A stretch of DNA of 63,966 nt from a virus: positions 1 to 63,966 of IMG/VR virus record IMGVR_UViG_3300033112_000364, one strand, 5' to 3'. Positions 5,776 to 51,685 of the stretch are shown in pieces. The notes under the pieces were generated by a model. That model worked only from the letters and a program-made list of their open reading frames with translations, did not search any database and was not told the DNA's origin. Within the stretch, counting starts at the first letter, position 1; each line of letters begins with the position of its first letter. The position numbers were made by a program, and so were the translations under genes.

Positions 5776-6218
5776 GCTTGTGTTTTGCCCTCAACCCCTC
5801 TATTCTCTCTGTCTTTTTTCCTATCTTCAAGCCACCGCAAACCTGTTTCGAAATGCGTTCTCGCAACAGTGGTATATCGTGAAGGAAAGTTACCAGATTC
5901 AAAGCCACGCATTCTATGCACAAGAATTCTCGCGAGGTCTTCATCTGTCATGCCGTTGACAGGGTTTTCTTTACGCGGTCCCTCTTGCATGTCTACTTGA
6001 CCATGAACAACAAAGCTCGTTTCAACTTCAACTTCGGCTTCTTCATTAGCCTCTACTTGCTCTTTTGTCCTGCGTTTCTTTTTTTCTTTAGATTCTACCT
6101 TTCTAACTATATAGTGGTGACAGGCACCAGAAACGGCATCTGGTGGGTCTGTTGCTACAAGCTGAGTGTATTCATCTTCATGTAAAATTTCTTCATGATT
6201 AGTTTCTTGATCTTGCAT
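5772..6218 (-). CDS. hypothetical protein (148 aa)
   Basis: TAGGAG lies upstream of ATG 6218 and the stop overlaps the GTG of the giant ORF. It has an acidic N-terminus, a KEKKKRRTKE linker and a helical-looking C-terminus. No motif recognised. Confidence 0.7.
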   Translation of the reverse strand: MQDQETNHEEILHEDEYTQLVATDPPDAVSGACHHYIVRKVESKEKKKRRTKEQVEANEEAEVEVETSFVVHGQVDMQEGPRKENPVNGMTDEDLARILVHRMRGFESGNFPSRYTTVARTHFETGLRWLEDRKKDRENRGVEGKTQA

Positions 6219-6289
6219 TTTGTTCTCCTAATATGATAGCACATATCCGATAACGCATAATGCTATTAAAATCAAAAGTCCTATTTCTA

Positions 6290-8767: not shown

Positions 8768-10398
8768 CTGATTAGAGTCCTTTTTCTCCGCAGACTGTCT
8801 ATAAACTCTTGAGCCGTTGTGCCGGGTCTCCGCTCTTTCATTTCTTCAAACATTCCATCAAATTGTGCTTGCGAAATATATCTGATATATTCTTGAGGAG
8901 CAACTTCACCTAAATCAAATTTGAGATTAGTAGTGTAATTTCCCCAATCCTCGCCCATATTCTTCACAAACGTGTCTTTGAGACCTCTCAAAACATTTGT
9001 CATCAAACCGTCTATAATAGCAGTATTCAGCTTATAGTCATTACCGATTTGAGCGAAAATTTGAGTATACATCTCACGTTCTGATTCAGTAACCTGCGCG
9101 CCTGAACGCAATGCGATAAATTCAGTAACAAGGAATTTGATGTCTGAAAACAAAGAGGCGACTTCAGGATCATTAGGTATTATGTCACCCCCAGTTCTCC
9201 TTGCAATTGCCTCAACAAATGCTGTCAGCTTACCCAAATCTTTACCTTGAGATTGTAAAAGATCAATTCTTTTTTGAATTTCAGGAAGATGCACTTGAAG
9301 TATTTCACGAGCGAGCAGATTTCTTTTAGCGATTTCTCCACCAGGTGCATTTTCAAAAATCTCATCTGCTGCTAAAAAAGCAACTGCTTTTTTGTTCTGC
9401 GGATCAGATGCCATCTGTTCAAAAGTTCTACCTCTTAAAAAACTATCAATATCGTGGGCCCACGCTTTTCTGTTACCAACCGGCATCATACTACCGATTT
9501 TACGAATCATGTAGTTATTAGAAAAATCATCTTTGTATTTATTGAAGATTTCCTCTGCTCTCTGCGTGTCTGTTATGCTACCTGGCGAAGGTTCTTTTTG
9601 TAAGATGCGAGGTGAGGTTTTACCGCCAGCGATTTCTGCTTTTTGCTGGTTTTTCCAAGCTTCCCATTCCTCATCTTTCATACCAGCAGGCTTTTCAAGT
9701 GCATCAATAATGTTTGTTTTTGCACCAAGCTCTTGCTCGGTTGTTTCTTCAGGTGTTTTCTGTTCTGGCTTTTCTGTGGTATCACGCATGAACGCTGCAG
9801 CAGGATCAACATTTGAATCAATTTCTTCATTCATTTGTATTGCACGTTGTTCAGGCGTTTGTGCTTTTCCAGTCGTTCTTTCTTGCTGGCGAATTTGTTT
9901 TGGTGTCATTTCCAATTCAGTAGCAAAACTACTGGATTGCACATCATCAGAAGCACCTAATAAAGCAAGTTTGGCAGTCTCAGGAGTTGACGAAGACGCA
10001 GCTTCACGAAAATCCTTTGTTTTGTTGTATAAATCAGGATCAATATCTTTTATGATAGCTGCGAGATAGTCAACAGTTGTATAGTCCTTGTCTTTGACTG
10101 CTGCCACATAAGCATTTTTGAGCCAATGCGATTGTCCCATCTCAACGAGTTGTAGTGCCTGTTCGTGTAGTTTTTCTTTTAGTTTGATTTGTTCTTCTAC
10201 ATTTTTTTTCTGTTCCTTGAGCAAATCCCCCTTCGCTGCCATTTCTGCACGTAGCAAGGCAGCCTCTTGACCAGAGACATCACCATTACCTTTCGCAAAG
10301 TGGGCGTTCATCAGTTCGGTGACGAGATCAGTTGCTGGTTTCGGAGTGGTATCTGCAGCTTGATTACCAGATTGTAATGTGCCTGCTATACTTTGCAT
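8764..10398 (-). CDS. hypothetical virion-module protein (544 aa)
   Basis: Long ORF coupled to its neighbours. The N-terminal half is Lys/Glu-rich and coiled-coil-like. No catalytic motif seen. Confidence 0.5.
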   Translation of the reverse strand: MQSIAGTLQSGNQAADTTPKPATDLVTELMNAHFAKGNGDVSGQEAALLRAEMAAKGDLLKEQKKNVEEQIKLKEKLHEQALQLVEMGQSHWLKNAYVAAVKDKDYTTVDYLAAIIKDIDPDLYNKTKDFREAASSSTPETAKLALLGASDDVQSSSFATELEMTPKQIRQQERTTGKAQTPEQRAIQMNEEIDSNVDPAAAFMRDTTEKPEQKTPEETTEQELGAKTNIIDALEKPAGMKDEEWEAWKNQQKAEIAGGKTSPRILQKEPSPGSITDTQRAEEIFNKYKDDFSNNYMIRKIGSMMPVGNRKAWAHDIDSFLRGRTFEQMASDPQNKKAVAFLAADEIFENAPGGEIAKRNLLAREILQVHLPEIQKRIDLLQSQGKDLGKLTAFVEAIARRTGGDIIPNDPEVASLFSDIKFLVTEFIALRSGAQVTESEREMYTQIFAQIGNDYKLNTAIIDGLMTNVLRGLKDTFVKNMGEDWGNYTTNLKFDLGEVAPQEYIRYISQAQFDGMFEEMKERRPGTTAQEFIDSLRRKRTLIR

Positions 10399-13258: not shown

Positions 13259-13681
13259 TTACCCAGAGTCTATCACTTCATCATGAAGTTCTATTTTAGA
13301 TAGATCATTAGCAACGTGTATGCCTAAAATAATTTTTTCAAAATTCATGGTGATAGCAATGTCAGCATCTCGGAATAATACTTTGATTTCTCCAAATTCT
13401 TTCAATTGACATTTATACCAAGTTCGTTTCATATTAAGCATTCTTGAGTCTAATCCATCATTCGTAATACTGAAAATACCATTTATATTTAGATTGGTGT
13501 AAATGTGGAATTTCTCAATGTGGGATTCCTCCCAATCTTCCCAATCTTCTCTATTTTCACAATTATCAGAGTCTCTTTGTGGAATCAATTCATGGCATTC
13601 CTCAAGTGTTTTGAAGTCATGCCGTTGCACTTCTTCTATACTCATAATAATTGATTCAGTAAAATTTTCAATAATTTTCAT
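13259..13681 (-). CDS. hypothetical protein (140 aa)
   Basis: ORF in the array with an acidic W/E-rich stretch. Confidence 0.6.
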   Translation of the reverse strand: MKIIENFTESIIMSIEEVQRHDFKTLEECHELIPQRDSDNCENREDWEDWEESHIEKFHIYTNLNINGIFSITNDGLDSRMLNMKRTWYKCQLKEFGEIKVLFRDADIAITMNFEKIILGIHVANDLSKIELHDEVIDSG

Positions 13682-14523
13682 TTGATTCCTGCAAATAGTG
13701 ATAGTTGTTTCGGTTTACACTGCGATATATGCACAATATCAGGACTAAATATCAACACTTCCTCTTTCTTTCTTATATTCCCATCGCCAAGTCTTTTGAG
13801 ATGTAGTTTGGCGAAATCTTCGTAAAGCTCGCGAACGAAAGGCACATCGTTGTAACTCAACATCCATCGTTTACGATCCTTTAACAAATTGAATAAATCG
13901 CGGTGCTTGAAATCTGCATGGTATTCTTTTGAGTTCCCATAAAGACAATCTCGTAGTTGTGAATAAGGTGGATCAAGATACAATAAATGATCGGGGTGTC
14001 TGGCGATGGTATCAAACGCATCACTCACCTGAACTGAAAACCCAGTTATATCAAATTTGGAAACACGATCCAAGACGCCTGGTGTAAGTCGGTCTTTAAA
14101 GTTGGAGCGGAGACTATAATCATTGAATGCAATTGAGCGAAAAGACATTCGGGTTAAAAGGAAGTATAACAATGCACGCTTGTAATTGCACTCTTCTTTG
14201 AAATAGTCTCCGTTATGGATACCAGTGAAATACTCACGTGATTCACTTTTCAACAACTCCACAACATCAACAACAAATTGATTTGGCGATTTTGGGAAAA
14301 CATTCCAAAAATTCACAACAGGTTCAAACTTATCATATCCGATCACCTTGACACCACGAGAGGCAAGATTCAATTCAATCGCACCTCCCCCGAAAAAAGG
14401 TGATACCACCTCTTTTGTGTGAATTGGGAAATACTGCATAAATGTTCTAAATAGCCAGAACTTCCCACCAACGTATTGAATAGGTGAATTCAAAACTTTC
14501 ATCAATTTTAGCTGGGTTCGCAT
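13678..14523 (-). CDS. dam: Dam-type N6-adenine DNA methyltransferase (D12/alpha class)
   Basis: YVGGK near the N-terminus, SAM motif PFFGGGA, catalytic motif LDPPY. Motif order is I then IV. Confidence 0.85.
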   Translation of the reverse strand: MRTQLKLMKVLNSPIQYVGGKFWLFRTFMQYFPIHTKEVVSPFFGGGAIELNLASRGVKVIGYDKFEPVVNFWNVFPKSPNQFVVDVVELLKSESREYFTGIHNGDYFKEECNYKRALLYFLLTRMSFRSIAFNDYSLRSNFKDRLTPGVLDRVSKFDITGFSVQVSDAFDTIARHPDHLLYLDPPYSQLRDCLYGNSKEYHADFKHRDLFNLLKDRKRWMLSYNDVPFVRELYEDFAKLHLKRLGDGNIRKKEEVLIFSPDIVHISQCKPKQLSLFAGIK

Positions 14524-15071: not shown

Positions 15072-15380
15072 TTACCTGTATTCTGATATAGCAGACTGAA
15101 TATTCTTTAGATCGGTTTTTGTGCGAGACAATTCTCTTGTCAGTAACTCAACCCTTGAGCGAAGTTTTTTGTTTTCTACTTCAAGTTGATCTATACCACG
15201 AGAATCACGAATCACTTGCAGTTCTTTCTCTTTCGCTTCCAAACGTTCTCTTATCGTGGTCACTTCATCACGCAGTTTGTTTATCTCTTTTTCTTGGCTA
15301 TCTAAAAGAGACGCTACTTTTTGTGACGTTGTAATAACGTGTTTCTTCTCAGGGTTTCTGTTTCGCAACTTTTCTCGCAT
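15072..15380 (-). CDS. coiled-coil protein (102 aa)
   Basis: Heptad-like E/K/L/R-rich sequence throughout. Confidence 0.55.
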   Translation of the reverse strand: MREKLRNRNPEKKHVITTSQKVASLLDSQEKEINKLRDEVTTIRERLEAKEKELQVIRDSRGIDQLEVENKKLRSRVELLTRELSRTKTDLKNIQSAISEYR

Positions 15381-15546
15381 TTCGTGACCTTTTCTTACGT
15401 TTGCGTTCCCTTTTGGCTGCTGCCCGCTTTAGATAGTATTCACGAGATTCAGCACTTTGTTCACGTTCTTTTTCTTTCGGAAGTGTCGGTGTCATGTAAT
15501 GTGCAGCAGCACCTATGAACAAAAAAAATAAATCGTCTTTTCTCAT
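15349..15546 (-). CDS. small membrane protein with a basic tail; candidate lysis-cassette component
   Basis: Hydrophobic N-terminus (LFFLFIGAAAHYM) followed by a K/R-rich tail. It lies downstream of the endolysin. Confidence 0.35.
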   Translation of the reverse strand: MRKDDLFFLFIGAAAHYMTPTLPKEKEREQSAESREYYLKRAAAKRERKRKKRSRNARKVAKQKP

Positions 15547-15555
15547 AATAATTGT

Positions 15556-15798
15556 TCATTCTACCATCAGATTTAACATTTTCTCACAAGCAAGTCGGAA
15601 ATCATGAAGTTTCGCAAGAGCATTATGCTTAGCTTTTTCAAGATCAGCAGCGTTTTCAGGAATTTCGTCTTGAATCAATTTTTGTGCATTATGAACCCTT
15701 CTCTCAATGGAGACACGGATTTTCTGTGCTGGTAGTGCGTCCTCTACGGCATTCTTCTCATCGTCATGATGATGTGTAATCTTATCTATAATATTCAT
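15556..15798 (-). CDS. hypothetical protein (80 aa)
   Basis: ORF in the array. Confidence 0.55.
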   Translation of the reverse strand: MNIIDKITHHHDDEKNAVEDALPAQKIRVSIERRVHNAQKLIQDEIPENAADLEKAKHNALAKLHDFRLACEKMLNLMVE

Positions 15799-15835
15799 TT
15801 GTTTCCTTCCTTTCAGCGTTGATAAACTTTTCTAA

Positions 15836-16588
15836 TCATGGTTTCAGGTCATTATCCACAACAGATTCTTCTCCAAGAATACTTGATACGTGTGTGTTAT
15901 GTTCTTTCAAATACATTCTCAACATCTGATTAACACTCTTGCGTGTGCCTTGTAGTTCTGTACCTGTTCCGGGATAAAAGTCCAGCCGTTGATCAAGTGG
16001 CATGCTACGCGGATACACATAGAGTTCTACGCTATTGGGATTATCGTGAATATCGATATGCCAGATAGCATTATCATCGGGTAAAGTTTCGTGAGTGTCT
16101 GGTGTTAGATTAGAGACATGCACAACATGATCAGCTTCCGTTTGTGTTTCCGCAGGTATTGGATGCACAGTGCCACTGGAATGACTAACGGCTTCAGCGA
16201 CAATCAAAGATGCAGCAGCTGTAGGTTTCTCTGCTTTGTGTTCAATGAAACTGAACTCATACACGTGAACAATAGTGGTTGTTCCGTCTCTGCCCGGCAG
16301 TCCCGGTGGACCCATATTACCGTCTGTGCCATCGCGACCATCTTTACCGTCTGTGCCATCGCGACCATCTTTACCGTCTGTGCCATCTGCCCCTGTAGGA
16401 CCCGGCACAAGTTGAACGCAAATACTATCAAATCCATCTTGTAGACAGACTGTATCCTCACCTGTACTGTTAAGGTATCTATCCACATCGTCAACCGTTA
16501 ACATGGGGCCCGTATATGGCACATCAGAACAGGCGAACACCAAGAACATCATGAACAAAAGCAAAACACTGATGAGTTTCATAATCAA
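15836..16588 (-). CDS. secreted lipoprotein with a collagen-like G-X-Y repeat
   Basis: Signal peptide plus a lipobox-like LVFAC. It contains GPTGADGTDGKDGRDGTDGKDGRDGTDGNMGPPGLPGRDG. Confidence 0.7.
   Translation of the reverse strand: MIMKLISVLLLFMMFLVFACSDVPYTGPMLTVDDVDRYLNSTGEDTVCLQDGFDSICVQLVPGPTGADGTDGKDGRDGTDGKDGRDGTDGNMGPPGLPGRDGTTTIVHVYEFSFIEHKAEKPTAAASLIVAEAVSHSSGTVHPIPAETQTEADHVVHVSNLTPDTHETLPDDNAIWHIDIHDNPNSVELYVYPRSMPLDQRLDFYPGTGTELQGTRKSVNQMLRMYLKEHNTHVSSILGEESVVDNDLKP
16319..16388. repeat. Perfect 27-bp tandem repeat (2.6 copies) encoding the collagen-like GTDGKDGRD units
   Basis: accgtctgtgccatcgcgaccatcttt repeats head to tail. Confidence 0.95.
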
Positions 16589-16644
16589 ATTCCTTATGTG
16601 AAGTTTGCGGGTGGTAACAGATACCGTCCATTTATTAAAGAGAG

Positions 16645-17439
16645 TTAATCAACATAAAAATACTTTTCTTCTCCAGTATCTATTACAAGAGCAATGTGTC
16701 TATACCTTGAATAGTTTGTTTTAGCAGCATTTGATAACAATAATTCGTTTGATGCTACTTCCCAGTTTTGACATTTTACTGCATCTATAAAATTTACAAA
16801 TTTTTTGAAATGAGGTAAACCAAGATTGAACAGCACATCAACAATAGCTTCTTTTCTAACTTCATCAATTTTATACCATACATCGTCACCCAATATTGAT
16901 ATAGCTGAGTTGACTGTTTCTTTCAGATCGTGTGCCAACAGCAATTCTATATCGTGATTTGAGAGTGGATTAGAAAATATTTGATTAGCAACATCTAATC
17001 TGTTTATATAAACCCTTTGCTGCTTTATCATCGTATTTTCCATAATATATCGTAAGTCTGTATTCGGAACTATTGACAAAAGTTCATCTATTGAAATTCC
17101 GTTGGTTTGGAGTGATCTGCCAACCCCGATTGTAAGAATACCCAACTTGTCTTTATACACTACATTTTTGATACCTTCCTCTACTGACATCAATTTTGTC
17201 AATCTTGATAAAGGTAATTGGGCTTCAACCTCATATTTATCTATATGATAAATATGAGGTGATTCTGTTTCAGGATTAATCTCTATTTCTGCAGAATCAG
17301 GCCCTTGGTCTAATCTATTCAAAATATTATTGATGTTTTGAGCTTCATTTAAGTTTAATATAATAAGAACAGTACTCAACCCTATCACCGTTATTATTAT
17401 TATTATTAAAGAATAATGCCCAATACCTAAATTTTTCAC
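16645..17439 (-). CDS. T4-lysozyme-type (GH24) endolysin with an N-terminal transmembrane/signal-anchor segment
   Basis: EEGIKNVVYKDKLGILTIGVGR aligns with the T4 lysozyme core [21 protein letters not shown]. The N-terminus is YSLIIIIITVIGLSTVLIILNL. Confidence 0.85.
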   Translation of the reverse strand: MKNLGIGHYSLIIIIITVIGLSTVLIILNLNEAQNINNILNRLDQGPDSAEIEINPETESPHIYHIDKYEVEAQLPLSRLTKLMSVEEGIKNVVYKDKLGILTIGVGRSLQTNGISIDELLSIVPNTDLRYIMENTMIKQQRVYINRLDVANQIFSNPLSNHDIELLLAHDLKETVNSAISILGDDVWYKIDEVRKEAIVDVLFNLGLPHFKKFVNFIDAVKCQNWEVASNELLLSNAAKTNYSRYRHIALVIDTGEEKYFYVD

Positions 17440-17447
17440 TGTTTACA

Positions 17448-18149
17448 CTATAAATCTTCATCAGATGAATCATCTCTATCATCAGATGAATCATCTCTAT
17501 CATCAGATGAATCATCTCTATCATCAGTTCCATTAGAACTGTCGTCATCTTCTTCTTGTTCGGGACTTCCGTAGATGCTATTAATGATCTGTTGAGCGAG
17601 CGACATATTCATATCTAAACTCATATCCAGATACTTTGCACCTGCATCAATAAGCATCATAATGCCTTCTGGGGGCAATTGTCGTTTTACAAGGACACGC
17701 CATTTTACGCCTGACCGTGCATCTGTGGAACGTCTTCGCTCATCAGATATAGATGCTTTACCATGAACTTTCACTTTACACGATATAGGACCGTAACCGA
17801 TTTTTGCCTCACCTTCAAATCCAGACTCAGCTGCAGTCTTTGTAGTTTGCTCAGAAGATGTATGCACATCCATGTGTCCTTCTACTTCCCCTTCATCACA
17901 AAGAAAAGGATGCATATTCCGTGCCATATAGCGCGGATATTTTATTTCGAAAGGCAGTACAACTCCCGTATTACCAAGAGGTTGAGATAAATCAAAATCA
18001 AAAGTTCCTGCTTCAAATGCAGCTTTTGTTTTTGCTTCATGAAGGTCTTCGAGGTGTGTCTCACCTTCTGCAAGACTTTCCAAAAACGCTTTGATTTGAT
18101 TACCCATCGTGTTCGCATAATCATTCTGAATTGTGTTGGCTTCATTCAT
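17448..18149 (-). CDS. hypothetical protein (233 aa), paralog of 18173..18613, with an Asp/Ser-rich repeat tail
   Basis: ATG 18149 has AAGGAG upstream; the track start at 18176 overlaps the upstream stop. It shares the motif KRQLPPEGIMMLIDAGAKYL with its neighbour. The C-terminus is DDRDDSS x3. Confidence 0.6.
   Translation of the reverse strand: MNEANTIQNDYANTMGNQIKAFLESLAEGETHLEDLHEAKTKAAFEAGTFDFDLSQPLGNTGVVLPFEIKYPRYMARNMHPFLCDEGEVEGHMDVHTSSEQTTKTAAESGFEGEAKIGYGPISCKVKVHGKASISDERRRSTDARSGVKWRVLVKRQLPPEGIMMLIDAGAKYLDMSLDMNMSLAQQIINSIYGSPEQEEDDDSSNGTDDRDDSSDDRDDSSDDRDDSSDEDL
17459..17527. repeat. 21-bp tandem repeat (3.3 copies) encoding the DDRDDSS units
   Basis: catcagatgaatcatctctat repeats head to tail. 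Confidence 0.95.
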
Positions 18150-18172
18150 CTTTTTTCTCCTTTTAAATAAAA

Positions 18173-18613
18173 TCAACCATCAAGTTGCCTATGAAGTTTT
18201 AGGCACTGTTCGTCTATAAGCATCGCCAGTCCCTCTGGCAATTCCGCTTGTTTCATTAACATCCTGATTTTGATGTGAGACCTCTCTTTAAATATGCCCT
18301 TCTTATTGAATGAGATTTCAACATCACCATCGCCATCTGTATCACCGATAAAATCACAAGGTGTTTCAATTTCAAATTCAAGTTCCGCTGGTAGAAGTGT
18401 GCTTATAGCTCGTAGTATTAAATCTACTGCCGTAATCTCCTTTCCATCGAAACTGACAAATTTGAATTCCTTGAGTTTTTTCACATTTGGATCATCTGTT
18501 TCCTCGAAAAATTGCATTATCTTTTCGTGAAACATATTTGACATGTGATGAGCAAGCTCATTTGGAATATCACCTATTTCACTTGCTACAAAATCCCTTA
18601 GATTTATCGGCAT
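18173..18613 (-). CDS. hypothetical protein (146 aa), paralog of 17448..18149
   Basis: C-terminal IKIRMLMKQAELPEGLAMLIDEQCLKL matches VKWRVLVKRQLPPEGIMMLIDAGAKYL in the neighbour. It also has a DTDGDGD loop. Confidence 0.6.
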   Translation of the reverse strand: MPINLRDFVASEIGDIPNELAHHMSNMFHEKIMQFFEETDDPNVKKLKEFKFVSFDGKEITAVDLILRAISTLLPAELEFEIETPCDFIGDTDGDGDVEISFNKKGIFKERSHIKIRMLMKQAELPEGLAMLIDEQCLKLHRQLDG

Positions 18614-18873
18614 TATATTTTAAACTCCTTTTTCTTTGCTACACGTGATTTATCCAATTTAGACTTATAAACCATGCGCGATGCATAAAATTTAATATCC
18701 GTTAGTGGTGACTCGTTCAATATCCTTTCAAGCTCTACCAGCTCATCTGGATTACCTGTTAGAGTAATATAAGATTTTTCATCTAATAAAACACCATTCA
18801 ATATTCCAATGACATTCACAGAAATCTGATTTTGCAACCTCTTTATTTTTTTTTGATCTCGTATAAATCTCAT
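18613..18873 (-). CDS. hypothetical protein (86 aa)
   Basis: Coupled ORF; its stop shares 1 nt with the next start. Confidence 0.55.
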   Translation of the reverse strand: MRFIRDQKKIKRLQNQISVNVIGILNGVLLDEKSYITLTGNPDELVELERILNESPLTDIKFYASRMVYKSKLDKSRVAKKKEFKI

Positions 18874-19136
18874 TTTACATCCTTGTTATTTTCCTCTATA
18901 CGGTCAATACGTTCAAGAGCTTGCAGTATACCTGGCAAAGCTTGTGCTATATGCCATAAAGCTAATAAACTCATACTGTGCTGAATATCAAAAAACAAAC
19001 CATCAAATAATATCGTAAACAACAATAATAAACCGATACATAATTGAATGTAAGCATTATTTACGATCTGCATGATTACACTATGTCGTTGACGGCCCGT
19101 GTTCATTATCTTCACTTGTTCCTTTGATAAATCCAC
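18870..19136 (-). CDS. small two-helix membrane protein; holin candidate
   Basis: Two hydrophobic stretches (IQLCIGLLLLFTILFDGLFF and LLALWHIAQALPGIL). It lies upstream of the endolysin. Confidence 0.35.
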   Translation of the reverse strand: MDLSKEQVKIMNTGRQRHSVIMQIVNNAYIQLCIGLLLLFTILFDGLFFDIQHSMSLLALWHIAQALPGILQALERIDRIEENNKDVK

Positions 19137-19464
19137 ACCAGATTATTGTAATAAACATGCCAATAAGAGGTATGTAATTGAGAAGGGCAAACCAACCCGG
19201 TCTACTCATATCATGCCAACGCTTAACATTGAGCGATACATGTATCCAGATATACAAAATACCTAAAAGTAAACCAATAGTGAGTTGTTTTGCGTTAAAT
19301 ATCTCTCCAAAAGTAAAATCATGAGGAATACTATAATGCGTAAGGATTATTAACAATTTTGTAACAATAAACGCCAATAAATGCCCGGTCCACCAATCGA
19401 ATCTATTAATTCTTCCATGATGGCTAAACAACAATTTCTCTAAAGGCATGTCTTTTGATTTCAT
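19081..19464 (-). CDS. DUF805-like inner-membrane protein
   Basis: GRINRFDWW ... VKRWHDMSRPGWFALLNYIPLIGMF matches the DUF805 (YhaH/YhaI-type) pattern as I remember it. Confidence 0.6.
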   Translation of the reverse strand: MKSKDMPLEKLLFSHHGRINRFDWWTGHLLAFIVTKLLIILTHYSIPHDFTFGEIFNAKQLTIGLLLGILYIWIHVSLNVKRWHDMSRPGWFALLNYIPLIGMFITIIWCGFIKGTSEDNEHGPSTT

Positions 19465-19473
19465 TTTATCTCC

Positions 19474-20217
19474 TTAAAAACTAAAATTAAGAGCGTTCTT
19501 CCAATGCCAGTTCCACGGTTCAATATCAACATGATGTGTGATATTATCATATTGTATTTCACCAGATATTTCTAAGGCAACAAGATTAATAATTGAAATT
19601 TTGGAAATAGGTAAAATAAGAATTGGTAATACACGTACTTGAAAGTTGTTAAATCTGTGTGTAGGCAAGAATTCTGTTAAAACAGATATGTACGGAAATT
19701 GTAATTCAATATGTGCCTGTGGCCCCCATTCCATATCTGTGTTAACATTGAAATCGGCATGTAGCTCTTCTTGTGCTAACCAAGTGCCAACTCCACCATT
19801 CAATTTAATTGTAGGTTGGTTAATAATATCTACATGGAAAAACATCCCGCCATGAAAAAGTGATTCTTGTTCTGACAAAGTTTTTTTTCCATAACGACTA
19901 TAAAGACGCAATCCAAACATTCCTCGATGATAACCACCTTCTATCCTTGCGCGAATATAATCGTGATGATCGGGTGCTTCATCTCTAAAATGTATCCATT
20001 CCACACCAGCATATCCATTAATAAAATCCAGAGGATATGTTGCTGATAATGTCATTGTTTGTTTGTCATTGTTACCGTGCGTAGATACAGAAAAATTAGG
20101 TCTGTCTTCTACCGAATATTCTGCAAACGCTGGTTGTGATATAACGCCAACAACAAAGGAAAAAACTATAAATATAACACAAAATATAATTTTGAAAAGG
20201 GTTTCACTTAATTTCAT
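19474..20217 (-). CDS. secreted outer-membrane beta-barrel-like protein
   Basis: Signal peptide ends in AFA/EY. The sequence shows an alternating beta-strand pattern. The C-terminal ALNFSF ends in Phe, the OMP beta-signal. Confidence 0.5.
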   Translation of the reverse strand: MKLSETLFKIIFCVIFIVFSFVVGVISQPAFAEYSVEDRPNFSVSTHGNNDKQTMTLSATYPLDFINGYAGVEWIHFRDEAPDHHDYIRARIEGGYHRGMFGLRLYSRYGKKTLSEQESLFHGGMFFHVDIINQPTIKLNGGVGTWLAQEELHADFNVNTDMEWGPQAHIELQFPYISVLTEFLPTHRFNNFQVRVLPILILPISKISIINLVALEISGEIQYDNITHHVDIEPWNWHWKNALNFSF

Positions 20218-20229
20218 AATAAACCTCTT

Positions 20230-21063
20230 TTAGAGTCTAAAACCTATACTACGAAACCATTTTATCATATCTTTATCAGGTATTAGATCGTCTAACATAG
20301 ATATAAATTCTTCATTAGATAAAGTTGAATGGGAATGAACATTATCAAAGACTTTCGCAAATGTGCCTTCCCAGTTGGTTTCAATATATTTGACAATTGT
20401 ATGTGAATAGCGATAACACCATATTGTCAATTCATAATCAGAATAAATTCCAAAACCTTCCGTCCAGTGTTGGACAGCGTTGATTTGATTTTGATCCATT
20501 CGTAAATCTTTTTCAAAAGAATCAAAAACAGGATGCCTCTCTGTATCTGAATAATAGTTTTCATTTAATACAGCGAATCCTTCGTCTGCCCAGGTTGGCA
20601 GAAAAAAAGGAGCAATAAAAGCATGCGTTAGCTCATGTGCGCGTACGTATTCTTTCTTAAACATTTCATAAGGAAAATGCATGGACAATTTGACTATACG
20701 ACCTATTCCTTCAAATGTTTTAGTTGTATAAGCAGAATTTTTACCACCATTTACATACTCAGAAATAGTCACATGTATTTTATGATCTGGTTTAAATCTA
20801 TATCGTTTGTAAAATTCATCAAACAATTTTTCCATGTTAGTTAACGCAATTTTTCTATATGTATCACGCTTTTTCTGTGTATTAAATAGTATATCAGATT
20901 TTATATCATTAGCAAATTCAAAATTAAAATGGATTCGCTCACTATTGCTATTTTCTGATACATCAAGATGTACATCTTTGTCTTGTGATAATATCACAAT
21001 TAATGAAATTAATACAAACAAAAATAATAGCAATACAAATAAAATATATTTTGGGCGTTTCAC
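20230..21063 (-). CDS. membrane-anchored HExxH zinc metallopeptidase-like protein
   Basis: N-terminal TM segment (YILFVLLLFLFVLISLIVIL) and HELTH followed by WADEGFAVLNE. The start codon is GTG. Confidence 0.5.
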   Translation of the reverse strand: MKRPKYILFVLLLFLFVLISLIVILSQDKDVHLDVSENSNSERIHFNFEFANDIKSDILFNTQKKRDTYRKIALTNMEKLFDEFYKRYRFKPDHKIHVTISEYVNGGKNSAYTTKTFEGIGRIVKLSMHFPYEMFKKEYVRAHELTHAFIAPFFLPTWADEGFAVLNENYYSDTERHPVFDSFEKDLRMDQNQINAVQHWTEGFGIYSDYELTIWCYRYSHTIVKYIETNWEGTFAKVFDNVHSHSTLSNEEFISMLDDLIPDKDMIKWFRSIGFRL

Positions 21064-21111: not shown

Positions 21112-22179
21112 TTATTCTATTTGTTGGGCTTCTAATACTCCGTATCTTCCCCCATCATCTGATGTTCTGTCATGAATCCACCATAAATTACCTGTTGTTG
21201 GGTTGTAGGTAAGCCCTGCTGGTGGATTGTCGTCTATTTCTATGTCCCTTGATCTTACACGATTTCCTGATGTATCACAACAAAATATCCAAGTCTCTGC
21301 TGAAATATGTGCTTGTAGAATCCAGAAATGACTGTCAGCATAAGTGAGTCCATGTTGTGCATCTGAAAAATAATATCCACTATAATCTCCAGTGTGCTGA
21401 GCTCTTGGTAGTGAGATTGCACCTGACTGCTCCACACCACTTGTTGAGAACTTTCGCAACTGATAATTCCGTATATCCAATCCCCAAATATAAGTGCCAT
21501 CAAATGTTAAAGACTCAATGTAAATCGGATTCTGACTAATCGTATAATCATCAACCAATTCACCCGAACTATTGACCTTGTTCAGATAAGCTTCCGTCCG
21601 ATTATTATTGCCACCACACCACCACCAGTTTGTGCCATCAAAACAGCCCCCCGATGGTCGGATCGGTGATCCATCTGATGAATTAAAACTTTCTAATAAC
21701 TGCTCTACACCTGATATATTGAATGAATTAATATAATCCACTCTCGGAGTTATTCCAACATCTGTAGTATTAAAAATATAGACGCGTTGTGTGGATTGAT
21801 TAAAACCTAAACCCAAAACAATCCGATTCGGAATAAGATTCTCCTGAAAAGCGTGCCTACGTGTAATAGAGAACTCATTAGAATTTACATCTGGCACACC
21901 TTCTTTGTTCGCTGTATATTTTACCGCGATGGTTTGTCCGAGTATTGCTTGATACCGCAGAACACCACCCCTTCTGATACTCCATCCACTTGGGAGTGTG
22001 TATTCTGATGCTAATGAAAAATAAGTCTCATTTCTTGGTTCATTGACATAGTTTCTTGCTCTAACCTGACGATTATTAGAATCTTCGAGTTCTAAATCTG
22101 GTAACTCCTGCCACTCAATTGGAACAGGTGGAGCATCAGATTCCACACGAAGTTCACAAACATCGAAGTAATCTGGCAT
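21112..22179 (-). CDS. tail appendage / receptor-binding candidate with beta-propeller-like C-terminal repeats
   Basis: The N-terminus MPDYFDVCELRVE is shared with the next gene. Repeated W/Y-rich blades follow (YIWGLD.., HFWILQ.., NLWWIHD..). Confidence 0.45.
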   Translation of the reverse strand: MPDYFDVCELRVESDAPPVPIEWQELPDLELEDSNNRQVRARNYVNEPRNETYFSLASEYTLPSGWSIRRGGVLRYQAILGQTIAVKYTANKEGVPDVNSNEFSITRRHAFQENLIPNRIVLGLGFNQSTQRVYIFNTTDVGITPRVDYINSFNISGVEQLLESFNSSDGSPIRPSGGCFDGTNWWWCGGNNNRTEAYLNKVNSSGELVDDYTISQNPIYIESLTFDGTYIWGLDIRNYQLRKFSTSGVEQSGAISLPRAQHTGDYSGYYFSDAQHGLTYADSHFWILQAHISAETWIFCCDTSGNRVRSRDIEIDDNPPAGLTYNPTTGNLWWIHDRTSDDGGRYGVLEAQQIE

Positions 22180-22180
22180 A

Positions 22181-23659
22181 TTACGGGTCCGGTGATATTA
22201 TGTCTTGATCCATATAAAAACGAGGATACCATCTATGAACTAATGGACTATCTGGCACATTAGGTGTAACAATTGTTGCTGTCCCCGTTTTTTGTGCTGT
22301 TTGATCACCCGTATTATCATAAGCTGAAAGCGTGATACGAGGATCATTAGACTCCATAACAGGATTACGGTTGTTATCTGCATCTGCCTGACTTTCATGT
22401 ATAGATACACCAAAACCCCTTGCCGCTGGTACACCTCTCGTATAGGTGAACATCACCATCATTGTTGAATTTTCATTCATGGTGATAACTTCTTGCACAT
22501 CTATTTGAGCAGGAACACGATTCAGAATATCAATATAGAAAACTGATTGCCAATATTCCCAACCAGTATCCGCAAGATTTCTGCGGGAGATGCGAGCTAA
22601 ACCCCATACGCGTTTATCAGCATTTACATAAGGTAGAGTCAAATAAAGAAAACCATTATTAGAACCTGTTCGCTGTTGAGGTGTTGCTGGCGACCACCTT
22701 ATATTATTTGGAATACCATCAGCACTTCCCAATCTATTCCTATTATTCTGTGCATCTGACCGTGAATTATACCAACCAACAAGTTCAAATCTTACCGCAT
22801 AAGGCGCGCCAGACATATAAGAAAAATTTAACACTGAATTCGTGCCTTCTATACCGTATCCACCAGCTAAAAAGATACTGGGTGTAACAGCATTCAGAAT
22901 TGTTAAAGTATAAGTAGCACTATCAACAACAGCATTGTTCTGAACAATTTCTACGCGACCATACCATCTCGTGTCTGCACTAACTGAAGGAAGATTCGTG
23001 CTATACCTTAAACTGCCAGTTCTTTCACGAATAGGTTGGTTCAATAAACCTGCCAAAGTTGATGAGCTCGGTGTAACAACAATTGAAGGTCTATTTGAAG
23101 TAATTGGATTTCTATCAGCTCGCGCATCTGAAAGAGAATTATGAAATGAATGTCTAATCGCTGTTGCAACAGGTGAACCAGCATTATACATCATATTGTT
23201 TATAGAAAATGCTGTGTTTTCATAAGCAGATACATTTTCAGGTATGCTAATTGTTGCTGCAACGGATTGATAAACGCGAACACGTGTCGTTGCTGTAGCA
23301 CTTCCATACGAACTTGTTACTGTCCAAACAATATACCAATCAACATAAGTAGGACTGTCTCCTGATAATGTTGGCATGACAATCGTAACAGGTTGTAATC
23401 CACCACTGTTCGCGGGCCATGTAGACCAGTCTCTTTCATTATAACTTATGTCAGGATTGCTTCCACCTTCGTTTACTGATTGCCTTGAATTGCTTTGTAG
23501 CTGATGTGAGAAATCATTCATTATCGGATAACCGACAACAACACTCACATTTATGTTTATAGATTGACCTTCATAAGCAGTAATATTAGCAGGAGCATAC
23601 ACCTCAGGTCTTCTATTAGCTCTAACGTCCAATCGGACAACATCAACATAATCAGGCAT
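22181..23659 (-). CDS. tail appendage protein with four tandem ~115-aa repeat domains
   Basis: N-terminus is MPDYVDVVRLDVRA. The repeats are marked by SDARADRNP, SDAQNNRNR and ADADNNRNP. Confidence 0.5.
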   Translation of the reverse strand: MPDYVDVVRLDVRANRRPEVYAPANITAYEGQSININVSVVVGYPIMNDFSHQLQSNSRQSVNEGGSNPDISYNERDWSTWPANSGGLQPVTIVMPTLSGDSPTYVDWYIVWTVTSSYGSATATTRVRVYQSVAATISIPENVSAYENTAFSINNMMYNAGSPVATAIRHSFHNSLSDARADRNPITSNRPSIVVTPSSSTLAGLLNQPIRERTGSLRYSTNLPSVSADTRWYGRVEIVQNNAVVDSATYTLTILNAVTPSIFLAGGYGIEGTNSVLNFSYMSGAPYAVRFELVGWYNSRSDAQNNRNRLGSADGIPNNIRWSPATPQQRTGSNNGFLYLTLPYVNADKRVWGLARISRRNLADTGWEYWQSVFYIDILNRVPAQIDVQEVITMNENSTMMVMFTYTRGVPAARGFGVSIHESQADADNNRNPVMESNDPRITLSAYDNTGDQTAQKTGTATIVTPNVPDSPLVHRWYPRFYMDQDIISPDP

Positions 23660-27148: not shown

Positions 27149-28210
27149 CTAATTACCTCGTTTCAGATATAATGTGCTGGTAATAATAGTTGATGATTGA
27201 GCCTCTAATGTTATCTCAAACATTTCGTGAAGTTCACCATCAGGCATAATACCTTTTAGGTGTGTCCCATCTGTCCTCAGAAAATCAGGTATGTTTACAC
27301 CTTTAACGAAGCCGTTTGCTAATTCGCCTAAATTAATATCTATCGTATCACCTGCTGCGTATTGCAAAAATTCGCAATTTAGAACTGGTTTTTGAATTCC
27401 AACTCCACTCGCTTTCGGTATCTGTCTTAGCGATTTGATTTCTTTTACTGATTTATTTAATCTTACCGAATCTCTAACTGATTTGCGTGGTGATGGAATG
27501 CGTTTCGCTATATCATCAATATCACACAATATTTGGTTTACACACAAAAGCCCAAAAGCTAACGAGTAAGGGTTTTGACCATCAGGACAAAATACTCGCA
27601 AAACACCTTCTTGAAGTGTTTCTGGTTCAGAATTCCAATTAGGCACAGATGGAAAAAACTCTACACGTGGCAATCTTGTTGTATCTGTTAGCATGTTGAG
27701 TCGTAGCTTCGCATCTAACCGAGTAGGATACCACTCTACGTGAAACTCCGTTATTGGTGGATGACCAATTGCATAACGATACATATAATCAATATAGGGT
27801 TCAAGTCTTGGAATAGTTATCTCATCTTCAACAAGATAAATACGCGGTTCAATAGACTCTGTATCTTGAACTATATCTATAACACCTACAGGATTTTCAT
27901 ACCCACCACTCTGTGGTGATGTCAGTCTTACATTGCCATTTTGTAGAATATCAGACTTTGCCAATTTATCTGGCACAGTAGGATTGAATAACGCAACGGG
28001 CAATCTCTCTATATCTGTTAGAGGATTGATGCGTGCATCGGCATCCGAACGGTTCGCGAACCATAACATACGGAAACTTTTTGCCGAAGGATTCCCACGC
28101 TCGTAATGCATAGGAAAAAATCGTGTTTCACCCGGTGTAAGAGGTGCTTCCTCTGGTGACACCACAAAAAACGCACGAGCATAATGTGTTTGACTAATCC
28201 TTGTCAACAT
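27149..28210 (-). CDS. tail protein with two copies of the repeat domain (353 aa)
   Basis: WFANRSDADARINPLTDIERLP and WYPTRLDAKLRLNMLTDTTRLP. Confidence 0.5.
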   Translation of the reverse strand: MLTRISQTHYARAFFVVSPEEAPLTPGETRFFPMHYERGNPSAKSFRMLWFANRSDADARINPLTDIERLPVALFNPTVPDKLAKSDILQNGNVRLTSPQSGGYENPVGVIDIVQDTESIEPRIYLVEDEITIPRLEPYIDYMYRYAIGHPPITEFHVEWYPTRLDAKLRLNMLTDTTRLPRVEFFPSVPNWNSEPETLQEGVLRVFCPDGQNPYSLAFGLLCVNQILCDIDDIAKRIPSPRKSVRDSVRLNKSVKEIKSLRQIPKASGVGIQKPVLNCEFLQYAAGDTIDINLGELANGFVKGVNIPDFLRTDGTHLKGIMPDGELHEMFEITLEAQSSTIITSTLYLKRGN

Positions 28211-48497: not shown

Positions 48498-49364
48498 TTA
48501 AAACATTTTGATTTGTTGTAGGTTTAGTCGTTCCTTACAGAGTTCTATAGCTTCTGGCTTTTCATCAATGCCAATATATCTACGGTTGAGCATATCAGCT
48601 GCGATGATTGTTGTGCCGCTACCACAGAACGGGTCTAATACAAGGTCATTTTCCGCAGAAGATGACCTGATCATTCTCGCATATAATGCGAGTGGCTTTT
48701 GAGTTGGATAATCAACTCGCTCTTTTGATTTGACAAATTCAATTGTCCACACCGTTCGTTGTCTCATGAGCGTTCCTTTCTCACATTCAAGTTTGAGATT
48801 GTGTAACGCTTCATCGTTGTGTTGAACATACTTTGTATAGAATAGAATAGTATTGTGATTGACTGTGAACCGTCGTTTTGTACATGGCATTGGTATTTTA
48901 TTTGGATAGTGCCAAATAATTTCAGAGTTGAACGCACCTTTATCTTTGAAGATTTTATTGAGTATAATACGCCACACGTGCGTTGTTCTGTAATCAATGT
49001 GCCAATAAAACCCACCGCCCCATTTGAGTACACGATACAACTCACGGACAGTTGGTATCATTTGCATAAAATAAAATAGTTCCTTCGGACTACAAAAATG
49101 ATGTAGGAAATAGAACTCATCATCTTCATATTTTTTGTGAAATGCTTCAACAGCATCAAACCATTTAGACTTATCGTTAGTATAGTCTCCAGTTTCGAGA
49201 AAATCATCTTGATATGTGACTCCGCTTGGTTGTCTCCAAGACAGCAACGCCCTATTTTGAATCCGTCCTGTGTTGAACGGTGGGTCTGTGCATATTAGGT
49301 CTACACTCTCGTCCGACATATTTACTAACACATCAAGATTATTTGCTACAAGTAAATTATTCAT
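48498..49364 (-). CDS. beta-class N6-adenine / N4-cytosine DNA methyltransferase
   Basis: The catalytic motif TDPPF lies near the N-terminus and the SAM motif LDPFCGSGTT near the C-terminus (order IV then I). Confidence 0.85.
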   Translation of the reverse strand: MNNLLVANNLDVLVNMSDESVDLICTDPPFNTGRIQNRALLSWRQPSGVTYQDDFLETGDYTNDKSKWFDAVEAFHKKYEDDEFYFLHHFCSPKELFYFMQMIPTVRELYRVLKWGGGFYWHIDYRTTHVWRIILNKIFKDKGAFNSEIIWHYPNKIPMPCTKRRFTVNHNTILFYTKYVQHNDEALHNLKLECEKGTLMRQRTVWTIEFVKSKERVDYPTQKPLALYARMIRSSSAENDLVLDPFCGSGTTIIAADMLNRRYIGIDEKPEAIELCKERLNLQQIKMF

Positions 49365-51427: not shown

Positions 51428-51685
51428 TTAGAGTTTGATCTTGGTAATATCTTGGTCAAAATAAGCAATCGGTATTTGATAGTATTCAGACAAGATCAAG
51501 AGTGATTCATAGCTGGGAAACCTTTTAGCATTTTCCCATCTCGACAAAGCACTTTCACTCAACCCTGTCTTTTTTGAAATTTCAACATTGGTGACATTTT
51601 TCTGTTTTCTCAAAAATATCAGGTTTGTCGCCATCATCTTTTTACGCGTTCTTGTTACTCTCATTCGTTTGGAACTTTTAGACAT
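51428..51685 (-). CDS. XRE/Cro-type helix-turn-helix regulator
   Basis: VTNVEISKKTGLSESALSRWENAKRFPSYESLLILSEYY. Confidence 0.75.
   Translation of the reverse strand: MSKSSKRMRVTRTRKKMMATNLIFLRKQKNVTNVEISKKTGLSESALSRWENAKRFPSYESLLILSEYYQIPIAYFDQDITKIKL

Follow-up and report, generated by a model that had tools for sequence, protein, structure and literature searches.

Why should a phage surround its endolysin gene with genes whose products are directed to the bacterial envelope? The question is raised by a block at positions 15349-21063 of the IMG/VR virus record IMGVR_UViG_3300033112_000364, from which a stretch of 63,966 nucleotides (positions 1 to 63,966, hereafter the window) was analyzed. 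An earlier note on this DNA had described the block as an island of envelope-targeted genes, and proposed for it a non-canonical lysis system, superinfection exclusion or receptor masking.

An envelope-targeted block beside the tail-fibre genes

The genes of the block all lie on the minus strand and are either close-packed or overlapping. Transmembrane (TM) or signal segments occur in 6 of its 11 crude gene calls vs 4 of 76 elsewhere (Fisher p=1.5e-4), which bears out the existence of an island, and the credible membrane proteins of the phage are all encoded inside it. Out of seven export or membrane signals initially counted, six are real. The seventh, a supposed TM protein of 65 aa with a basic tail (15349..15546, minus strand, pI 10.7), is unsupported: its hydrophobic stretch spans just 13 residues, under the TM threshold, no homologue was found in related phages, and the gene itself is doubtful. 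Promoter-like sites in the block show no excess over shuffled sequences, and terminator-like sites only a slight, non-significant surplus (8 vs 4.7, sd 2.1).

Directly upstream, two tail-fibre-like genes of 355 and 492 aa (21112..23659, minus strand) close the structural module, and fibre genes occupy the same place in six related phages. The lysis block always adjoins tail-fibre genes in these genomes, and since morons classically occupy that place as well, linkage by itself does not tell a lysis component from a passenger. Neither an integrase nor a repressor was found among the window proteins scanned, and the defence-system models gave 0 matches.

The anchored muramidase and its partners

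The endolysin (16645..17439, minus strand) is a GH24 or T4-type muramidase, with a Phage_lysozyme match over the Pfam cut-off, a match to T4 lysozyme across residues 82-255 and the catalytic residues E88-x8-D97-x5-T103. It carries an N-terminal TM segment followed by a linker of ~55 aa, and this anchor, with 68% of I/L/V/F/M, is strongly hydrophobic, unlike classical SAR domains. We compared the locus with nine distinct related phage contigs, in which all endolysins, including a non-homologous one, show an N-terminal TM segment and a linker of ~50-60 aa, whereas an “SPH” motif in the linker is common to the seven GH24 copies.

The small holin-like protein (18870..19136, minus strand; likely start at ATG 19106, 78 aa) has two TM segments, and its C-terminus is charged. 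It matches no holin family in profile searches, and each of the nine loci has a homologue of it within the lysis block, upstream of the endolysin gene. Its gene is overlapped by the 3′ end of a gene for a DUF805 inner-membrane protein (19081..19464, minus strand; E 2.3e-21, three hydrophobic segments), which directly precedes the holin-like gene in seven of the nine. Such an arrangement recalls the pinholin/SAR-endolysin cassettes of phages 21 (S21-R21) and P1 (Lyz), and that of phage Mu, wherein the gene of a small two-TM protein lies upstream of that for a Sec-exported, N-terminally tethered GH24 muramidase with the E-x8-D-x5-T triad. The block differs from all of them in the absence of spanins, in a holin-like protein outside the holin families and in its extra conserved partners, DUF805 and a DUF2589 pair, and from the SAR endolysins in an anchor that is not Gly/Ala-rich and is followed by the long linker.

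The DUF2589 protein (17448..18176, minus strand; likely start at ATG 18149, 233 aa) lacks a signal peptide, and its poly-acidic C-terminal tail is encoded by a perfect 21-bp repeat (x3.3). Its 146-aa neighbor (18173..18613, minus strand), without a Pfam match of its own, shares with it a C-terminal strand and a “PEG” helix. The two had been called a paralog pair, which holds for the C-terminal 32-50 residues (BLASTP, 38% identity, E 7e-7; hhalign, 85%, E 6.6e-6 across 32 columns) but not for the rest; they are better described as a DUF2589 protein and a shorter relative. In three sister phages (L004, L010 and L015) an aerolysin-like protein takes the slot of the pair, which suggests a membrane-permeabilizing role for the latter by analogy. 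A fourth phage, L013, encodes an aerolysin-like protein directly downstream of the protease discussed below and upstream of the holin-like gene. No homology between DUF2589 and the aerolysin-like family was detectable, and an amphipathic hairpin in DUF2589 was non-significant against shuffles. A contig of cellular appearance (L100) also has two DUF2589 genes, which stand beside the gene of an anchored GH25 muramidase.

Two further soluble proteins are encoded in the block. One is basic (18613..18873, minus strand; 86 aa, pI 9.8) and has no assigned function; among related loci, its gene is kept in that of L002, the closest relative, and in no other (L003 has the same genes). The other is helical (15556..15798, minus strand; 80 aa), and its homologues directly follow the endolysin gene in four phages (L004, L010, L012 and L015). 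Here, a gene for a collagen-like lipoprotein separates the two.

A tethered zinc protease and an outer-membrane barrel

The first gene of the block (20230..21063, minus strand) encodes a protein with an N-terminal hydrophobic helix (residues 7-25, 19 residues, KD 3.61), a HELTH motif at residues 143-147 and a downstream E161. Its AF2 model (pLDDT 91) is matched by Foldseek to the catalytic domains of the M1, M9 and M61 families, and M60-like Pfam matches are found in its bacterial homologues, while its own score falls under the Peptidase_MA_2 cut-off. On this predicted structure the protein is a gluzincin zinc peptidase, sharing with clan MA(E) the thermolysin-like catalytic fold and the HExxH motif with a downstream Glu in “W-x-x-E-G-F-A”. 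It differs from M1, M9, M61, Peptidase_MA_2 and M60-like enzymes in its minimal catalytic unit of ~230 aa, an HExxH-E spacing of 13 residues, the lack of a GxMEN motif and its tethering through a lipoprotein or TM anchor. Residues H143, E144, H147 and E161 are invariant across 49 sequences of the family. Most homologues have lipoprotein signal peptides, whose place is taken in the window copy by a TM/signal anchor without Cys; a periplasmic location holds for either anchor, so the substrate of this predicted protease, which keeps all its catalytic residues, should be a protein of the periplasm or envelope.

The next gene (19474..20217, minus strand) encodes a protein with a Sec signal peptide ending in AFA, a mature start EYSV and a C-terminal aromatic beta-signal (ALNFSF), modeled by AF2 as a 12-stranded outer-membrane (OM) barrel (pLDDT 86.5). 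In the PDB it is matched best by KdgM and NanC (target-normalized TM-scores of 0.66-0.69), and among viral proteins by a phage DUF481 barrel (0.61). With these and YdiY-like barrels it shares size, 12 strands and short loops, but a profile search gave no Pfam membership, and the family (33 cluster representatives) is phage-borne in the 10 of 10 distinct contexts examined. A phage-encoded OM barrel is less unusual than first thought, since annotated viral protein sets already include many “outer membrane protein” barrels. The lambda morons Lom, an 8-strand OM barrel, and Bor, an OM lipoprotein, likewise lie beside tail-fibre and lysis genes; the present barrel differs in its 12 strands and its KdgM/NanC/DUF481-like fold outside Pfam families, and no promoter or terminator of its own was evident here. 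Since the more distant members of its family are encoded far from lysis genes in other phages, we would rather read the protein as an accessory of the moron type, independent of lysis and serving as a surface protein or channel. It is unlikely to be an enzyme, as the family has no conserved polar residue.

Profiles, predicted structures and motifs thus agree with the earlier calls of a metallopeptidase, an OM barrel, a DUF805 protein, an anchored T4-type lysozyme and a collagen-like lipoprotein, and the expected signals and barrel topology are present.

Possible disruption of the outer membrane without spanins

The protease, the holin-like gene and an anchored endolysin form a single block in all nine related loci, most of which also include the barrel and DUF805. 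The block is kept in L014, where gene order is shuffled and the stop of the protease gene runs into the start of the endolysin gene, and in L013, where the endolysin has been swapped for the non-homologous anchored one. Such conserved synteny supports a link between protease and lysis cassette. A canonical spanin is absent: across all frames of the window, the only credible lipobox ORF is the collagen-like protein. According to a preprint, spanins are missing in ~15% of phages of Gram-negative hosts, which need another mechanism (bioRxiv 10.1101/515445). The phiKT gp28 “disruptin” described there also comes from a phage of a diderm host with no recognizable spanin and with unassigned small genes in its cassette; our phage differs in having no conserved cationic amphipathic peptide (the doubtful basic 65-aa ORF occurs in this phage only), the candidates being instead the zinc protease, the barrel and the DUF2589 or aerolysin-like proteins.

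The tethered gluzincin, with or without the barrel, could stand in for spanins, cleaving OM-peptidoglycan tethers or OM proteins after muramidase action. In L004, L010 and L015, whose translated genes were read, the protease is the only lipoprotein seen in the block. L012 and L014, however, encode further small lipoproteins, possibly of a spanin type, the barrel is missing from two of the nine blocks, and the cellular homologues of the protease are conserved chromosomal lipoproteins beside a sulfatase and an LPS heptosyltransferase, with no lysis genes. We consider a dedicated spanin substitute of this kind possible but doubtful. The conserved tie of the protease to a spanin-less cassette leaves the proposal of non-canonical lysis viable; the barrel fits it less well. 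For the protease by itself, the role that we would tentatively put first is to weaken the envelope ahead of the final lysis step.

The probable host lineage and other readings of the block

Candidatus Poribacteria is a phylum of diderm sponge symbionts. Among 150 cellular relatives of the protease, the best 80 all belong to Candidatus Poribacteria or to unnamed MAGs, and for these best 80 of 150 the full context aminotransferase-sulfatase-protease-p204-GT9-GroEL is present in 52 of 80 Poribacteria genomes; the sulfatase is retained in most of the remaining neighborhood patterns listed, and so is p204, a lipoprotein with a weak F5/8-type-C match below the threshold. Judged by this one gene family, the phage most likely infects a member of this phylum, and the protease gene appears to have been captured from the host lineage.

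Such a setting could mean that protease and barrel copy or extend nutrient acquisition by the host, the former degrading glycoproteins of the sponge matrix and the latter taking up the acidic products. The M9 collagenase matches, the M60-like homologues, the acidic-sugar channels closest to the barrel and the variable, accessory-like position of its gene among phages would all suit this idea. Nevertheless, the inner-membrane-type anchor of the window protease leaves extracellular substrates out of reach, the phage proteins lack an N-terminal segment of ~55 aa found in the cellular ones, the similarity of 12-strand barrels carries no substrate information, and the genes sit within a late, close-packed fibre/lysis unit without signals of their own. 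A host-fitness function is thus unlikely.

More doubtful again is the destruction or hiding of a receptor by the exported protease, the barrel or the collagen-like lipoprotein (15836..16588, minus strand; signal peptide with lipobox VFAC, 14 G-X-Y triplets, likely start at ATG 16582). T5 Llp and phi80 Cor are lipoproteins encoded beside receptor-binding genes that act in this way, and the block, rich in envelope proteins and including lipoproteins, begins directly after the fibre genes. Among the phages compared, the collagen-like lipoprotein is found in this one only, and a perfect 27-bp repeat in its gene suggests rapid variation. However, no block protein resembles any exclusion or defence protein, a late operon offers poor timing, and the protease family stays while the fibre genes differ (L002, L013), which argues against receptor-specific co-evolution.

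We would give little credit to the gluzincin as a release factor that cuts the muramidase linker between anchor and catalytic domain. The anchored endolysins of the nine loci, the SPH motif, an anchor too hydrophobic for spontaneous SAR-type release and the gene overlap in L014 would fit, and phage Mu reportedly has a “releasin”, a dedicated release protein for its anchored endolysin. But the reading is pure inference, the motif may just mark the start of the folded domain, and an enzyme on a 55-aa tether could reach peptidoglycan uncleaved. Finally, that these are misread virion components is highly improbable in spite of the adjoining fibre genes and the many tail-fibre PHROGs matched by the collagen repeats, since those matches are confined to the G-X-Y repeat, the ~150-aa C-terminal domain has no phage homologue, the homologues of the block proteins are exported proteins and no virion parts, and proteins with Sec signals, lipoboxes, a BAM-type C-terminal signal or a transmembrane barrel fold cannot belong to a virion that is assembled in the cytoplasm.

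A probable lysis core with interleaved accessory genes

The locus is probably best explained as a late lysis/envelope block of a novel tailed phage of Poribacteria, where a spanin-less lysis core, deduced from anatomy and synteny, is interleaved with envelope accessory genes. In this core, the GH24 muramidase would be Sec-exported and kept at the inner membrane by its N-terminal anchor, until the two-TM holin-like protein, possibly together with the overlapping DUF805 protein, depolarizes or permeabilizes the membrane and so activates or releases the enzyme, following the logic of pinholins and signal-anchored endolysins; the cytoplasmic DUF2589 pair may be a dedicated partner of the anchored muramidase. 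The accessory genes would then provide a zinc endopeptidase from the host lineage, tethered to the membrane and facing the periplasm, and a phage-specific 12-strand barrel inserted into the outer membrane through the BAM pathway of the host; to these, this phage alone would add a collagen-like lipoprotein of the outer membrane.

A block of envelope genes beside the tail fibres

Between 15.3 and 23.7 kb of the window every gene lies on the minus strand, and the genes are close-set or overlapping. Two tail-fibre-like genes (21112-22179 and 22181-23659) precede an island (15349-21063) that encodes, in this order, a zinc protease, an outer-membrane barrel, a DUF805 protein, a holin-like protein, an 86-aa protein (p86, 18613-18873), a short DUF2589-like protein, a DUF2589 protein, a muramidase, a collagen lipoprotein, and two small ORFs of 80 aa (p80, 15556-15798) and 65 aa (p65, 15349-15546). 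An earlier note had counted seven genes with export or membrane signals in this island. Six of them were confirmed by a Kyte-Doolittle scan for hydrophobic segments combined with inspection of start sites, and the seventh, p65, was dropped as a TM protein, its hydrophobic stretch of just 13 residues being too short to pass. On crude gene calls, TM or signal segments occur in 6 of 11 genes of the island and in 4 of the 76 outside it (Fisher p=1.5e-4), an enrichment which indicates that the original observation is real and non-random. The four calls outside the island, that of the large terminase (39901-41814) among them, are probably false positives.

No tRNAs were found in the window, and most of the large ORFs outside the island match nothing in Pfam or PHROGs, apart from three DNA methyltransferases (D12-class N6-A, N6/N4 type and a C5-cytosine fragment) and a RuvC-like resolvase, located at 13678-14523, 48498-49364, 51678-52382 and 54498-55001. 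An iterated profile (E 5.9e-41) identifies a 353-aa protein (27149-28210) and the 492-aa tail-fibre-like protein at 22181-23659 as distant paralogues. A nucleotide search of GenBank phages gave no match apart from the collagen repeat, and for barrel, protease, DUF2589 protein and lipoprotein C-domain alike, tblastn against 50,697 GenBank phage records revealed no homologue. Scans of IMG/VR with the barrel and protease returned one contig, and with DUF2589 none.

Conservation and rearrangement in related phages

Exact-protein look-ups and pattern scans yielded nine distinct related phage contigs, whose gene orders were established by iterative profile comparison of all island proteins with their ORFs. 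In the window phage and in these relatives, the lysis block always directly adjoins the fibre genes. One relative (L002) keeps a core of the window type, the protease being followed by an insert of four small His-rich genes, and another (L007) carries the DUF2589 version plus extra inserts. In three more (L004, L010 and L015), a signal-anchored protein of a 298-aa type comes ahead of the protease, and p86 and the DUF2589 pair are replaced by a 317-aa protein. The barrel is absent from the block of L012. The order in L013 is protease, 317-aa protein and holin-like genes, followed by a non-homologous anchored endolysin, and in L014 it is barrel, holin-like gene, a 240-aa protein and protease, the stop codon of the latter overlapping the muramidase start. 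Despite such rearrangement and endolysin replacement, protease, holin-like gene and anchored endolysin stay linked; the collagen lipoprotein and p65 were found only in the window among the phages compared.

Several accessory elements accompany these blocks. The His-rich genes (L002:8767-9990; L007:6671-8707 and 9722-10362) encode small proteins with tracts such as HHEHNEHH and GHGHHGHGGH, which may bind metal; in runs, they separate the zinc protease from the barrel or come directly after the latter. A helical module of ~30 aa, with the motif LHKAGV..(I/V)xDE(V/I), appears either as a holin-like fusion (C-terminal halves of L004:11147-11626 and L014:8676-9260) or as one to three free-standing small genes adjoining (L012:12338-12842, L013:11918-12615, L015:12322-12540), with fusion to a small lipoprotein in L012. 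Sugar-modifying genes (sulfotransferase, glycosyltransferase, epimerase, CTP-transferase and methyltransferase_21) also form clusters in related phages, a few kb beyond the downstream end of the lysis block (L004:16501-19310, L012:16286-20022, L014:14634-18379) or, in a phage without the block, downstream of the barrel gene (L096:11125-16312).

A zinc protease with relatives in Candidatus Poribacteria

The first gene of the island (20230-21063, minus strand) was described as a TM-anchored, HELTH metallopeptidase-like protein, a description that our results support. The protein combines HExxH with a downstream Glu as third ligand (E161), and of its 53 homologues, 49 were compared and show no variation at H143, E144, H147 and E161. 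An AlphaFold (AF2) model built from the homologue alignment (pLDDT 91) predicts a thermolysin-like catalytic fold resembling the catalytic domains of M1, M9 and M61 gluzincins, with ERAP2, tricorn F3, LTA4H, Vibrio collagenase and M61 as top Foldseek matches (probability 0.96-1.0, query TM 0.42-0.51). Peptidase_MA_2 (PF13485) scores 16.7 bits, under its 32.4 gathering cut-off, and some bacterial homologues have precomputed matches to PF13485 or PF13402. By its motif and fold, the protein is a gluzincin zinc metallopeptidase of clan MA(E). It is not an M1 aminopeptidase, as it lacks the GxMEN motif and its HExxH-E spacing is 13 residues instead of HExxH-x18-E. Its single strong N-terminal hydrophobic segment is a Cys-free anchor of 19 residues, unlike most or almost all homologues, which start with a lipoprotein signal peptide (..G/A-C).

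A scan of cellular genomes, taking one genome per species, found 150 relatives of the protease, and the best 80 of these 150 (L016-L095) all belong to Candidatus Poribacteria MAGs (77 named) or to unnamed MAGs. In 52 of these 80 the full context is conserved: aminotransferase, sulfatase, protease, the lipoprotein p204, a GT9 heptosyltransferase and GroEL (also L005/L006:4623-8874 among the cellular protease loci). The match of p204 to an F5/8-type-C-like domain is weak and sub-threshold. A 71-kb contig binned as Poribacteria bears one close homologue of the phage type. From the distribution of these relatives and their conserved context, the host phylum is likely Candidatus Poribacteria, and the phage gene was likely captured from the host.

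A phage-specific outer-membrane barrel

Next to the protease, a protein with a signal-peptide-like N-terminus is encoded at 19474-20217 (minus strand), and its proposed identity as an OMP beta-barrel was borne out. Sequence inspection gives a cleavage site AFA|EY and a terminal F, the aromatic end of a C-terminal beta-signal after a Sec signal peptide, and the AF2 model has an even number of 12 strands (pLDDT 86.5). The top PDB matches are all outer-membrane barrels, the best being KdgM, NanC, OmpG, the invasin beta-domain and FapF. The likeness to KdgM/NanC lies in the fold only, since no Pfam or NCBIfam match places the barrel in that porin family by sequence. In a viral structure library, where many other phage proteins already carry an outer-membrane protein annotation, the best match is a DUF481 barrel from an uncultured phage.

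A word-indexed search returned only two homologues; scanning 1.84 billion representatives with a full profile gave a family of 33 members, each some 235-245 aa long, starting with a signal peptide and ending in F or W. Gly is the sole conserved residue type across 29 of them, which, together with weak matches to OMPLA and PagL, argues against an enzymatic barrel of the OMPLA, PagL or LpxR type. Three distant relatives are on phage contigs away from any lysis gene, suggesting a mobile accessory gene, and no barrel homologue occurs near the protease genes in the 80 Poribacteria or MAG contexts. Most simply, the barrel is an independent accessory outer-membrane protein.

A signal-anchored muramidase without spanins

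The muramidase (16645-17439, minus strand) reaches 25.2 bits for Phage_lysozyme (Pfam cut-off 22.3) and can be aligned with residues 5-155 of T4 lysozyme, including the triad E88-x8-D97-x5-T103. Glu and Asp are kept in all seven aligned GH24 copies, Thr being replaced by Ala in one (L012). With its one N-terminal TM segment, it is established as a GH24, signal-anchored lysozyme of the T4 type, just as had been proposed. SAR endolysins have a weakly hydrophobic TMD, rich in Gly/Ala/Ser/Thr and thereby able to leave the bilayer, whereas this anchor is strongly hydrophobic (68% I/L/V/F/M, 23% G/A/S/T, KD 2.96), and the enzyme is therefore better termed signal-anchored, not demonstrably SAR. The linker that joins anchor to catalytic domain contains an SPH motif in each of the seven GH24 endolysins of the phage group (alignment A8).

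The holin-like gene (18870-19136, minus strand) likely starts at ATG 19106, judging from its relatives. Its product has two hydrophobic segments and a charged C-terminus, and the reading as a 2-TM protein stands. Topology and endolysin-proximal position would suit a class II or pinholin-like holin in nine of nine loci, and no holin family of Pfam or PHROGs matches the protein. The DUF805 assignment of the neighbouring three-segment inner-membrane protein (19081-19464, minus strand) proved correct (PF05656, 76.8 bits vs a 25.7 cut-off, E 2.3e-21), and its matches in GenBank phages are to Acinetobacter phage records only.

The collagen lipoprotein (248 aa; 15836-16588, minus strand) also agrees with its earlier description: it scores 31.5 bits for Collagen (cut-off 27.2), has 14 G-X-Y triplets, and carries a signal peptide with a predicted lipobox VFAC (Cys18 counted from ATG 16582). 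A scan of all ORFs of at least 30 aa, from each start codon and in the six frames of the window, left it as the only credible lipobox ORF. It lacks the C-terminal TMD of a unimolecular spanin, and a coiled-coil type-II inner-membrane protein, which in two-component spanins accompanies a small, often embedded outer-membrane lipoprotein, was not detected, so that canonical spanins of either kind are absent from the window. Two perfect tandem repeats, one in this gene (27-bp x2.6, 16317-16387, DGTDGKDGR units) and one coding for the acidic tail of the DUF2589 protein (21-bp x3.3, 17458-17527, DDRDDSS units), suggest by their perfection a recent expansion or contraction.

The DUF2589 pair and its aerolysin-like alternative

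DUF2589 (PF11655) is recognized in the 242-aa protein (17448-18176) at 24.0 bits against a cut-off of 23, and in 8 of its 19 homologues. Its 146-aa neighbour (18173-18613) has no Pfam match and is at most a putative member of the DUF2589 family, hhalign giving 85% over 32 columns only. Of the paralog pair formerly proposed, what holds is a C-terminal element common to both proteins; the rest of their sequences is not shared. The amphipathic beta-moment of the DUF2589 hairpin does not exceed that of shuffled sequences (non-significant), and we discarded it as an argument.

The DUF2589 profile found one metagenome locus, in a 138-kb cellular-looking contig (L100) with MFS, TPR-regulator and MscS neighbours. 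There, 5566-8158 encodes in a row a DUF2589 protein (E 1.5e-41), a 94-aa protein, a second DUF2589 protein (E 2.8e-21) and a TM-anchored GH25 muramidase (E 2e-38). A DUF2589 pair thus lies beside a membrane-anchored muramidase twice, of GH24 type in phages and GH25 in L100. The strongest sign of a functional tie between the pair and the muramidase is this recurrence with another muramidase family, which also suggests that DUF2589 pairs may be general partners of anchored muramidases.

The 317-aa cytoplasmic protein of sister phages (L004:11616-12569, L010:11622-12632, L013:10959-11921, L015:12530-13480) scores 23.2 bits for Pfam Aerolysin, just under the 24.3 cut-off, and its best PDB sequence matches are marginal, to natterin-like aerolysin domains (E 0.058 and 0.5). 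It fills, in L004, L010 and L015, the slot between holin-like gene and endolysin held in the window by the DUF2589 pair, and in L013 it directly follows the protease, upstream of the holin-like gene. Comparison by hhalign gave no homology between the two families.

A putative lysis cassette and its implications

We regard the gene identities, export signals, conserved linkage, spanin absence and Poribacteria link as established, and we infer that the block is a lysis cassette built on a signal-anchored muramidase, in which the 2-TM holin-like protein would act as the trigger and the DUF2589 pair, or its aerolysin-like alternative, as a muramidase-coupled partner. Periplasm-facing, lipid- or TM-anchored and with its catalytic residues kept, the protease should cleave an envelope protein. 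The role we prefer for it, with well under an even chance, is weakening of the envelope as the last lysis step; release of the anchored muramidase, nutrient acquisition and receptor modification are the other candidates.

A bolder proposal, which we consider improbable, is that a diderm host is lysed without spanins by components new to lysis. A membrane would be permeabilised, alongside the anchored muramidase, by beta-hairpin proteins of the cytoplasm, namely the DUF2589 pair or the aerolysin-like protein that can take its place, and the host-derived periplasmic gluzincin, with or without the phage-specific 12-strand barrel, would break the outer-membrane layer. The position beside fibre genes is also a classical moron site. 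Promoter and terminator brackets of the moron type were rejected: promoter-like sites show no excess over shuffled controls, and the terminator-like sites (8 vs 4.7 in shuffles, sd 2.1) are a slight, non-significant surplus. A defence or exclusion system was set aside, PADLOC giving no match to the window. Virion structural proteins were rejected on account of signal peptides, lipoboxes and the barrel fold.

Phage lysis cassettes with neighbouring envelope accessory genes are already known, as are annotated phage outer-membrane barrels. What is new is the particular composition, the absence of spanins, the host-derived gluzincin kept in the cassette, the association of DUF2589 with muramidases, the aerolysin-like alternative in the same slot and the Poribacteria host link. 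Literature searches gave nothing useful on DUF2589, on aerolysin or barrels in lysis cassettes, or on lysis by Poribacteria phages.

To our knowledge, Candidatus Poribacteria has no cultured member and no isolated phage, and the protease gene ties to this phylum a group of uncultured sponge-metagenome phages (~60-95 kb). The work also delimits a family of 12-strand outer-membrane barrels that is specific to phages, and the muramidase pairing would provide a first functional handle on DUF2589. Should the spanin-less proposal be true, DUF2589 would be a widespread, muramidase-coupled family of membrane-permeabilising proteins, used by cells too. The island supplies concrete candidates for the missing outer-membrane step of spanin-less phages.
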